Positions 30,992 through 32,711 of a stretch of 64,000 nucleotides of DNA are shown piece after piece. The DNA is from an uncultured virus (IMG/VR IMGVR_UViG_2695420592_000001) (lineage: Duplodnaviria > Heunggongvirae > Uroviricota > Caudoviricetes), in the IMG/VR virus record IMGVR_UViG_2695420592_000001; one strand, 5' to 3'. The first letter of the stretch is position 1; the number at the start of each line of letters is the position of its first letter. The position numbers were made by a program, and so were the translations under genes. The notes beneath the pieces were generated by a model. That model did no database searches and had not been told where the DNA came from. It worked only from the letters and a program-made list of their open reading frames with translations.

Positions 30992-31214
30992 GCTGTATAC
31001 TCCTGTGGCAGGTTAAGAAATAAATGTTAACCATTGACTTCTGTTATCTGCATACATAAAAACAAAACCAATCTACAGCAACTCAACAGCAAATATTCAG
31101 TGATTATAACAATTAGCATAATCACATAACCGTATTGTGACGCCTTCAGGGATGATCTGAGCTTCCTTCCACTGCGCTCACGGGCGTCACATCCCAGCCT
31201 GTATAAGGTGCCCT

Positions 31215-31307
31215 GTGTTCGAAACTATTATTATTCTGATAGCGTTTGTTATTATAGTTGCCATTGTCACCATTATTCTGACCGTATACGGAAAACGGAG
31301 CCGTTAA
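31215..31307 (+). CDS. 30-aa single-TM peptide
   Basis: GTG start after AAGGTG; MFETIIILIAFVIIVAIVTIILTVYGKRSR. Confidence 0.55.
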   Translation: MFETIIILIAFVIIVAIVTIILTVYGKRSR

Positions 31308-32711
31308 CACTGAATATCAGAAACTGTGAAAGCGATCATGGTTTTTTATAATCTGTGTATGAAATAAAAGTGTGGCGAAGATGTGAATTAACCTCATACT
31401 AATAACAAAATAACTTGTTGCTGCCTTTATCGATAACGGGTACATAAAGTGCCCGTTCTTTTTTATCCTTTTTGTTTTATCGTGGGCAATCGGTCATACG
31501 TCTGCTCTTCTTTTTATTGACGCCCGCCTGCCGCATACGCCATAACATCTTTGTGGCATCTGGTGGTTTCAGTCCTTAATCAGTTATGGGATTCCTACAG
31601 GTTCACCGGATGCCACACAGCCTTCCCTCACGCTTTTCATTAGCGCATCAATCAATGATCTGAATCAACGCCAAAATCCTTCTGTTTGTGACATAAAAAA
31701 TCGGCTTTAAGTGTGAAGGCGAGAGTCCGCTGCGATATAATAATGACTCAGACGACTAACGTTATGCTGGGGGCTTGAGAATGGCCCCCTGTTTTTTTGT
31801 TGACACTCACCCATTGCATACGCAATAGATACGAACAAAGAGTATCTCAAGGTACCAGGCATATTTTATCCCTGCTGGGGTTCAGAATGCGGCCCCATTT
31901 TTTTCACCCGATTAATGTCATAAATATCGTTATGAACACCGTTGTACGCATAGCTCTTCTCATTTCTGCCATGATCGTGTTCACTTTCAAACGTGCAGAT
32001 ATCGCCAACAGACCTGATTATGTTGAAGAAGAGTCCGTTTTTTAAATAGTCAGGGTATCTGACCGAAATACTGCCGTTCCTGATTTTCAGAAGCATGATG
32101 ATTGCGATGCAGATCATCTGTGTTGTGGTGGTCCTGGTTGGTACGTTTGACATCATACTCCACAATGTCGGAGAACCACGGGAAGGAGCGCTCGGTACTC
32201 TAACCAGAATCGAATAATCACTATTGACATTAACTACCAGCAAGCGAGAAAAAATAATGACTCGTACCACTATAGAGCACCAGAAGGTGCCAGGTAACAC
32301 TTGTAACTACCTCATTCAGGGGGCTACCGGCCCCTGTTTTTGACTGGTGCCAGCTAAATGATTTTTTCATATGAATTGGGTTGTATTACTGTGATGTTTC
32401 TTGTTTCTGCTGCCGTAATCCTTATAAGTCGTTATTTTTGATGTACGCTCAGAAATCGATATCTTTATTTGCGGCTCGTCATTGATTCTGTCATAAGTAA
32501 ACAGTGACGTCCGGATACACTACCCAACGTGTTCCAGGTGATCTTTCACGTTGTCGGGCGTCACACCTATCGCTTAATCTCATAACACTAATACATTTTA
32601 CTGGTTTGACTTGCATATGCTGCGTATGAAATAAGATTCATGCTTATAGTTCTTACTGTCATTTTTTATTATACAGGGGCATGATCCGACGCCCTTCTTT
32701 TTGGTGGAGCC

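Follow-up and report, generated by a model that had tools for sequence, protein, structure and literature searches.

Plus-strand hairpin elements behind promoter-like boxes in a provirus tail-gene island, and their relation to the Salmonella small RNA STnc1280

The hairpin island

The window analysed here, the whole 64,000-nucleotide (nt) stretch of the uncultured virus record IMGVR_UViG_2695420592_000001, is an enterobacterial provirus, and its nearest record (G001) is identical to it across the region in question. The structural genes lie on the minus strand, and the minus-strand tail genes are interrupted by a gene-poor island of 1.9 kb on the plus strand that carries three hairpins, here called E1, E2 and E3 (Table 1). 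A first-pass annotation had described the three hairpins, the CATAA(C/G) boxes before them and -35-like hexamers before two of them, and all of these are indeed present. Each CATAA(C/G) box is followed, after 5 nt, by (T/A)GTG. Five small hydrophobic open reading frames (ORFs) lie in the island on the same strand. A scan for intrinsic terminators gave five terminator-like hits in the island, corresponding to four distinct sites, all on the plus strand, where 1.5 were expected. The hairpin that ends the E3 leader is a fifth terminator-like site, which the scan missed because its loop is 10 nt; it is conserved in the related phages L005, L007, L010 and L015.

Table 1. Features of the island and its flanks (positions in the window)
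Feature	Position	Strand	Basis or description
543-aa gene	29360-30991		flanks island on one side; PHROG 'internal virion protein'
E1 -10-like box CATAAC	31125..31130	+	sequence
E1 hairpin TGTGACGCC...GGCGTCACA	31136-31191	+	10-bp closing stem, 36-nt interior
30-aa hydrophobic ORF	31215..31307	+	GTG start; AAGGTG Shine-Dalgarno 31205-31210; begins 24 nt past E1
Intrinsic terminator closing unit E1	31435..31465	+	terminator scan
E2 promoter-like unit	31517..31546	+	TTGACG 31517-31522, 18-nt spacer, CATAAC at 31541
STnc1280 equivalent, contains E2 hairpin	31549..31623	+	homology to ST64B
E2 hairpin TGTGGCATCTGGTG...CACCGGATGCCACA	31552-31617	+	14-bp P1, 6-bp P2, 11-nt loop
Intrinsic terminator ~150 nt past E2	31769..31798	+	terminator scan
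37-aa hydrophobic ORF	31932-32045	+	directly behind terminator
40-aa hydrophobic ORF	32095-32217	+	directly behind terminator
27-aa hydrophobic ORF	32358-32441	+	directly behind terminator
E3 promoter-like unit	32469..32497	+	TTGCGG 32469-32474, 17-nt spacer, extended -10-like TGT-CATAAG (CATAAG at 32492)
E3 hairpin GTGACGTCCG...CGGGCGTCAC	32504-32564	+	consensus 11-bp P1, 10-nt 5' bulge, 7-bp P2, 16-nt loop (RNAalifold)
Terminator-like hairpin and U run	32675..32702	+	fold; ends ~200-nt leader starting at E3; directly before Shine-Dalgarno of next ORF
34-aa hydrophobic ORF	32712..32816	+	downstream of E3 leader; directly behind terminator
DUF1353 / tail-assembly-chaperone gene	32889-33263		flanks island on other side

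A hairpin of this size is not rare in itself, since stems of at least 9 bp with loops of 30-56 nt occur 43 times in the window against 21-38 times in five block shuffles. The combined pattern CATAA-N7-GTGRC-N40-62-GYCACA has three matches in the window, all on the plus strand within 1.44 kb, and none in 100 shuffles, although the pattern was written after the three elements had been seen and the shuffle test is therefore partly circular. Independent support for the shared architecture is its recurrence in other phages, which is described below.

E2 is the counterpart of a Salmonella prophage small RNA

When the island was compared with 50,697 phage records, the E2 region alone gave matches, in six Salmonella phage records (two of ST64B, two of 118970_sal3, F1055 and S.Typ Adana). 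In two BLAST searches E2 and its promoter-like unit matched the Salmonella phages at 92-93% over 111-113 nt, or at 86.6-87.3% over 134 nt. The alignment with ST64B keeps the -35 block, the CGCCATAACATCTT block, the entire hairpin and about 30 nt 3' of the stem, including CCTTCCCTC, whereas the promoter spacer and the sequence farther away differ.

The ST64B prophage of S. Typhimurium carries an annotated small RNA (sRNA), STnc1280, in strains 4/74, SL1344, D23580 and ATCC14028. In D23580 it is a 73-nt species at 2065926-2065998 on the plus strand and sits just before a DNA-invertase fragment (2066011) and sseK3 (2066445) (PMC6333337 supplement). Whether anchored on the invertase fragment or on sseK3, the shift to the ST64B locus (L001) is identical and places STnc1280 at L001:3016-3088; the ST64B hairpin occupies L001:3020-3083, and STnc1280 spans it from 4 nt before to 5 nt after. 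STnc1280 has the same hairpin as E2 with one loop difference, the same -35 and -10 boxes and the same strand logic, and by this homology E2 is the counterpart of an annotated and expressed prophage sRNA.

Reads of STnc1280 are present in all libraries of one published data set, and the raw counts are higher in macrophage (4482/3588/84 in 4/74 and 5543/7596/2742 in D23580) than in vitro (70-329 in 4/74, 29-318 in D23580, and 110 and 247 in two D23pBT1 libraries) (PMC6333337 supplementary file 14). In ATCC14028 a mean of 763 was reported for an rpoS mutant and of 290 for the wild type, a 2.41-fold difference (PMC4014581 Table 1). That STnc1280 might be the 5' leader of sseK3 was considered and rejected, as sseK3 is induced about 100-fold in InSPI2 medium (6027-7695 reads in InSPI2 against 55-141 in ESP) and STnc1280 is not (224-324 against 149-182) (PMC6333337). 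No partner or target of STnc1280 is named in the literature searched, and the sRNA is absent from the supplements of PMC12721325 and PMC5001712. An Rfam search of the relatives and of the ST64B locus, with expectation values (E) up to 0.1, gave no family on the hairpins.

The surroundings of the E2-type copies differ. In ST64B the STnc1280 locus adjoins int/attP and the invertase remnant, whereas E2 lies inside the tail region of the window, and from about 45 nt past the stem the two contexts are unrelated. In phage 118970_sal3 (L051 2501-4300) the copy stands downstream of int, at the head of a same-strand run of six annotated small ORFs that includes one for a 37-aa hydrophobic peptide; a near-identical peptide is found behind the E3 hairpin in the IMG/VR loci L016 and L020.

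Relatives of E1 and E3 and a fourth element

E1 and E3 have the arms GTGACGCC and GGGCGTCACA in common, and a covariance model built from E3 (R1) recovers E1 with 21.9 bits (E 0.0016, 102 kb searched); we read E1 and E3 as paralogues of each other. The same model did not detect E2 at E up to 10, and neither E1 nor E3, which gave no BLAST match, is a sequence homologue of STnc1280. The compensatory changes that had been read at first pass from a comparison of E2 with E1 and E3 presuppose a homology that the model does not find, and are not supported.

A search with the pattern CATAA-N7-GTGACGYC-N30-55-GGGCGTCAC gave 12 stretches in IMG/VR viral contigs and three in 185,579 species (one genome each), two of the latter being in Citrobacter braakii ATCC 51113 and one in a marine gammaproteobacterium. 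In the marine genome (L022, HTCC2080), which is unrelated, the hairpin behind CATAA has a stem of 11 bp (GTGACGCCCTA/TAGGGCGTCAC); this hit is chance-like, about 3.5 such hits being expected by our own estimate. Among the pattern matches E1 is represented by a single version and E3 by eight, and a ninth version of E3 came from C. braakii contig C33. In eight variants of E3 neither the TTTATTTG block nor the CTGTCATAA block changes, in contrast to the spacer between them. A pattern search of the 5.6-Mb C. braakii genome gave four hits against two for a reversed-pattern control; three of the four lie in stretches homologous to the island. The fourth, on contig C16 (L037/L040), is a separate locus in which a diverged E2 copy stands together with a further element, E4, and another TTGACT promoter-like module.

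The alignment of E4 with E1 extends from the promoter through the hairpin. E4 has an E2-like 5' arm (TGTGGC) and an E3-like 3' arm and flank (CGGGCGTCACACC), and behind it come a C/U-rich tail and a U run. E1 itself lacks a good -35; in the alignment, TTGACC of the C. braakii copy falls opposite a degenerate GTGATT (31100-31105). The strongest case for placing all types in one family comes from E4, as the link between E2 and E1/E3 is otherwise one of architecture only. E1, E3 and E4 are new relatives by architecture and partly by sequence. In genome G212 a further copy looks decayed: neither the CATAA box nor the outer stem is left, although the inner 8 bp and the inner helix persist.

The elements are sparsely distributed. 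Matches of any kind to the island were found in 3 of 401 sampled genomes of the family and E3 in 1 of 18 genomes of the genus, and BLAST searches for near and distant matches in 20,395 E. coli records found none. With Rfam 15 the window as a whole gave only sok and STnc100 at the gathering threshold, both elsewhere, and positions 30900-33000 gave only weak, chance-level hits at E up to 10. A match to a known Rfam family, which the first-pass annotation had named as grounds for refutation, was not found on them.

Folding, strand preference and covariation

When folded as plus-strand RNA, E2 reached -30.0 kcal/mol (z -3.83), with 1 of 200 shuffled sequences folding as well, and E3 -25.6 kcal/mol (z -3.49; 1 of 200); for E1 the values were -21.8 kcal/mol, z -1.53 and 16 of 200. 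The minus-strand folds of E2 (-24.1 kcal/mol, z -2.87) and E3 (-20.6, z -0.48) were weaker, and that of E1 was marginally lower in energy (-22.1) but had a z of only -0.57.

Substitutions in the stems were tallied by hand from alignments of the E3 family, the C. braakii E2 copy and E4. Nine of them gave new G.U or U.G pairs on the plus strand (four in the E3 family, four in the C. braakii E2 copy and one in E4 relative to E1); the tally also held one C.A in a conserved stem pair, two other mismatches and one double compensatory change (A-U to G-C, columns 18:73). Since the wobble pairs would be A.C mismatches on the other strand, these substitutions favour an RNA structure on the plus strand. 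Pairing was kept in 86.1% of 79 cells, as compared with 37.5-45.6% when the partners were slid by 1-3 columns, and the inner helix of E2 (helix 2) was kept in its relatives, at 87% paired. The comparison of sequences therefore favours a plus-strand RNA structure, while formal covariation is not significant. The first-pass view that these are RNA-level structures directly behind promoter-like boxes is supported for the plus strand.

The interiors of the hairpins

It had further been suggested that a constant scaffold presents a variable, guide-like or antisense loop. The constant part of this description stands, as E1, E3 and E4 have a common closing stem around differing interiors. The interiors are not hypervariable, however: four types were seen in all (E1-E4), and the interiors are type-specific and conserved within a type. 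Eight aligned variants of the E3 interior are alike except for a short stretch in the apical loop, and the E2 interior differs at one position between the Citrobacter-type and Salmonella-type copies.

The anti-Shine-Dalgarno-like tracts reported in two interiors (CTTCCTTCC and GTCCTT) do exist, but they are predicted to pair with GGGA tracts inside the same hairpin and are not free loops. Both CsrA-type GGA loop sites and anti-Shine-Dalgarno loops were rejected as candidates on this ground, the GGGA and UCC tracts pairing mutually in the folds. A scan of duplex energies between the three interiors and both strands of the 64-kb window gave best non-self energies no better than those of three shuffled queries each, so that no target complementarity beyond shuffled controls was found within the window. 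Because the interiors are conserved within each type and no such complementarity was seen, the guide-like reading is unsupported. Two other points are supported: E1 and E3 lie in the putative leaders of small-peptide genes, and E2 corresponds to an sRNA annotated from experiment, STnc1280.

Discussion

The reading we prefer, with a probability of roughly 0.55, is that the elements are the 5'-terminal stem-loops of short, independently transcribed plus-strand RNAs, and that promoter and hairpin together make up portable sigma-70 cassettes. A sigma-70-type promoter (-35 TTGAC/TTGCG, a spacer of 17-18 nt and a -10-like CATAAS) would set the predicted start at, or within a few nt of, the base of the hairpin, and the RNA would begin with a long closed helix. 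It is known that 5'-terminal helices protect enterobacterial transcripts from 5'-end-dependent decay. The helix could shield these transcripts in the same way from RppH and RNase E, and a discrete, stable species of about 70 nt, the one annotated as an sRNA in Salmonella, would survive. Promoter and hairpin would travel between phages as one cassette before changing cargo, in the present case into what may be an accessory ('moron') island set in opposite orientation between minus-strand tail genes, where E1 and E3 would act as leaders of mRNAs for membrane peptides of 30-34 aa. The comparison shows the structures and their conservation, the bias towards the plus strand, the homology to STnc1280 and the change of cargo; where transcription starts in this phage, and that the helix stabilises the RNA, we infer.

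Conservation ahead of the hairpins is promoter-like: the -35-like and -10-like blocks stay the same and the spacer between them varies, both among the eight E3 variants and between E2 and ST64B. That the helix would begin within a few unpaired nt of the primary 5' end is predicted from the 5-nt spacing to the -10-like box and from the annotated start of STnc1280, 4 nt ahead of the stem. The cargo changes from phage to phage. Depending on the phage, the small hydrophobic ORF behind the E3 hairpin is one of at least three: in the window E3 opens a terminator-bearing leader of about 200 nt, after which comes the 34-aa peptide, and other peptides stand behind E3 in L006 and L016. E1 is followed here by the 30-aa peptide, and E2-type copies are found next to int/attP in ST64B, at the head of a small-ORF island in 118970_sal3 and in the tail region of the window.

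Several observations weigh against this reading. All CATAAS boxes lack the usual final T of a -10 element, and none was called by a consensus promoter scan. E1, with a z of -1.53, is no more stable than shuffled sequence, nor is E4 (z -0.19), and the minimum-free-energy fold of the whole E1 unit replaces the E1 hairpin with other pairings. Covariation is not significant among either the four E2-type or the eight E3-type sequences: for the former, 213 of 500 shuffles reach the observed percentage paired and there is one double change, and the E3 family holds no double change. The annotated 5' end of STnc1280 lies 2 nt past CATAAC, too close for a -10, which implies that either the annotated end or the assignment of the hexamer is off by a few nt. 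A search of RNA runs found none with transcripts of this phage's stretch. Four runs were mapped; two had no reads and the others had 76 and 9 over 31512-31639, from the ST64B allele only. As 69 of the 76 reads extend upstream of the -35 and both mate orientations occur, they give no information on start site or strand. Finally, plain protection of the 5' end leaves the conservation of the interiors within each type unexplained, and this leaves room for a trans-acting, protein-binding or cis-switch role.

The first such role, which we regard as possible but rather unlikely, is that the hairpin RNAs are trans-acting regulators, stable, structured sRNAs some 70-100 nt in length that act through a bound protein (ProQ-type, for instance) or by pairing with targets through the C/U-rich tail 3' of the stem, with the type-specific interior as the functional part. 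STnc1280 accumulates as a discrete 73-nt species and varies with condition independently of its neighbour sseK3; the E2 interior is near-invariant, and the 30 nt or so past the stem have been kept while the promoter spacer diverged. The tail and U run behind E4 also fit such a regulator. On the other side, no canonical terminator or Hfq-type 3' end lies directly after E1, E2 or E3, the searched literature offers STnc1280 neither partner nor target, and the complementarity of the interiors did not exceed that of shuffled queries, in a crude scan confined to the window rather than extended to host genomes.

We think it unlikely that the hairpins are cis-regulatory leaders of the peptide genes, working through alternative pairing of the 3' arm (occlusion of a Shine-Dalgarno sequence, or a terminator/antiterminator switch) or through terminator resistance like that of HK022 put. 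Four of the five small ORFs (31932, 32095, 32358 and 32712) lie immediately behind plus-strand terminators and their expression would need read-through, so that read-through control of these ORFs is a real possibility. By eye, the 3' arm of E1 (GGGCGUC) can pair with GGUGCCC in the Shine-Dalgarno region of the 30-aa ORF, and the 3' arm of E4 overlaps a possible AACCGGG...CCCGUU hairpin followed by a U run. These alternative pairings are short and without covariation support, however, E1 exists in one sequence version only, and the downstream contexts vary between copies. ST64B has no obvious downstream gene to control, and STnc1280 is not co-regulated with sseK3. The put RNAs of HK022 are cis-acting antiterminators directly behind the early promoters and consist of two stem-loops. 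The elements described here likewise place a structured RNA immediately past a phage promoter with terminators farther down, but they are single extended hairpins.

Going further, the basal helix GUGRC...GYCAC(A) could be a common handle for one phage or host RNA-binding factor, or for RNA polymerase, with the interiors of E1, E2/STnc1280, E3 and E4 providing specificity; together with the tandem promoter-terminator units described below, the elements would make up an RNA circuit of the prophage by which a battery of tiny membrane peptides is gated during lysogeny or host-cell infection, through put-like terminator read-through for instance. This is a speculation to which we give little credence.

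That the elements are DNA palindromes (operators, or recombination or repeat elements) or a chance similarity is very improbable. In favour of it, the arms do form inverted repeats in the DNA, TGTGA/TCACA are similar to the half-sites of known regulators, the window has many hairpins of this size, and the one marine match looks like chance. Against it, the arms lie 36-44 nt apart, promoter, hairpin and downstream tail are conserved jointly, the substitutions are biased towards plus-strand G.U, that is, towards A.C on the other strand or in a cruciform, and the four C. braakii hits against two in the control, with no E. coli match, do not describe dispersed repeats. For the same reason the elements are not placed with the REP- and ERIC-type dispersed palindromes, which are defined by many copies.

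Two other known systems are also close to the promoter-and-hairpin cassette that we prefer. Hairpins of the ompA type stabilise enterobacterial mRNAs from the 5' end, and they likewise set a long helix at or near the predicted 5' end, right behind the promoter and before a short mRNA. Unlike them, the elements described here move together with their promoter and have interiors of 36-41 nt that are type-specific and conserved; any stabilising effect here is putative. In type I toxin-antitoxin systems (hok/sok, ldr, ibs, tisB, zor), as here, a structured 5' leader stands before a short ORF, in this case one of 30-34 aa that is strongly hydrophobic and ends in a basic C-terminus, and a genuine hok/sok locus does occur elsewhere in the window. 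The signal scan of the three units gave no antisense or divergent sRNA gene and no minus-strand terminator or promoter that could belong to a type I antitoxin, every transcription signal detected being on the plus strand, and the peptides behind E1 and E3 match no Pfam, PHROG or NCBIfam model.

In the literature searched no function has been assigned to STnc1280, which has stood as an orphan Salmonella prophage sRNA. The present comparison suggests that it is one of a small family of promoter-plus-5'-hairpin cassettes that may move between Salmonella and Citrobacter prophages and stand before different cargo, be it small membrane peptides or further small RNAs. The relatives supply comparative material for a structure model, and protection of the 5' end, a cis switch and a protein handle are hypotheses that can be framed with them. 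The island itself, so far unannotated, is dense in small RNAs and micro-proteins within a tail-gene cluster. Should the elements be merely stabilising leaders, the result would be a useful annotation and not new biology.

Small ORFs, tandem units and other features

Protein-level conservation in related phages was seen for four of the small ORFs (37, 40, 27 and 34 aa); the 30-aa ORF after E1 is too short for a homology search and was compared with family models only. None of the five gave anything above noise against Pfam, PHROGs or NCBIfam. The 40-aa ORF had nine Salmonella relatives in the homology search, all labelled 'hypothetical protein'. The Shine-Dalgarno and start region of the 34-aa ORF (32697-32716) is 80% complementary to the ORF's own 3' end (32785-32804) and is paired with it in the minimum-free-energy fold; by eye, this pairing is not kept in L005 or L007.

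A promoter-like module (TTGACA, then 18 nt, then an A-rich hexamer) recurs at 31517, 31800 and 32224 and occurs several times in related phages. Tandem short units, which have no 5' hairpin, lie at 31794-31903 and 32219-32345, and L005 has three copies. Each unit comprises TTGACA, an 18-nt spacer ending in GCAnnCGC, an A-rich hexamer (AATAGA or GAAAAA) and a putative RNA, some 70-90 nt long, that is closed by an intrinsic terminator. Several have a conserved GCACC-N4-GGTGC hairpin, and the units match no Rfam family.

Two sub-threshold Rfam matches to IS009 were seen among the related loci, at L016 1-185 (71.3 bits) and L001 4855-5020 (41.8 bits), where the gathering score is 117; the match in L001 lies under a tail-fibre-assembly gene. 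Elsewhere in the window the sok antitoxin RNA (54273-54446, 107.7 bits) and STnc100 (48961-49178, 102.3 bits) were found above the Rfam gathering score, both on the minus strand, and in the relatives L005-L007 sok lies just beyond the tail-fibre gene. Downstream of the tail genes, a single ORF of 2757 aa occupies 16460-24733 on the minus strand.

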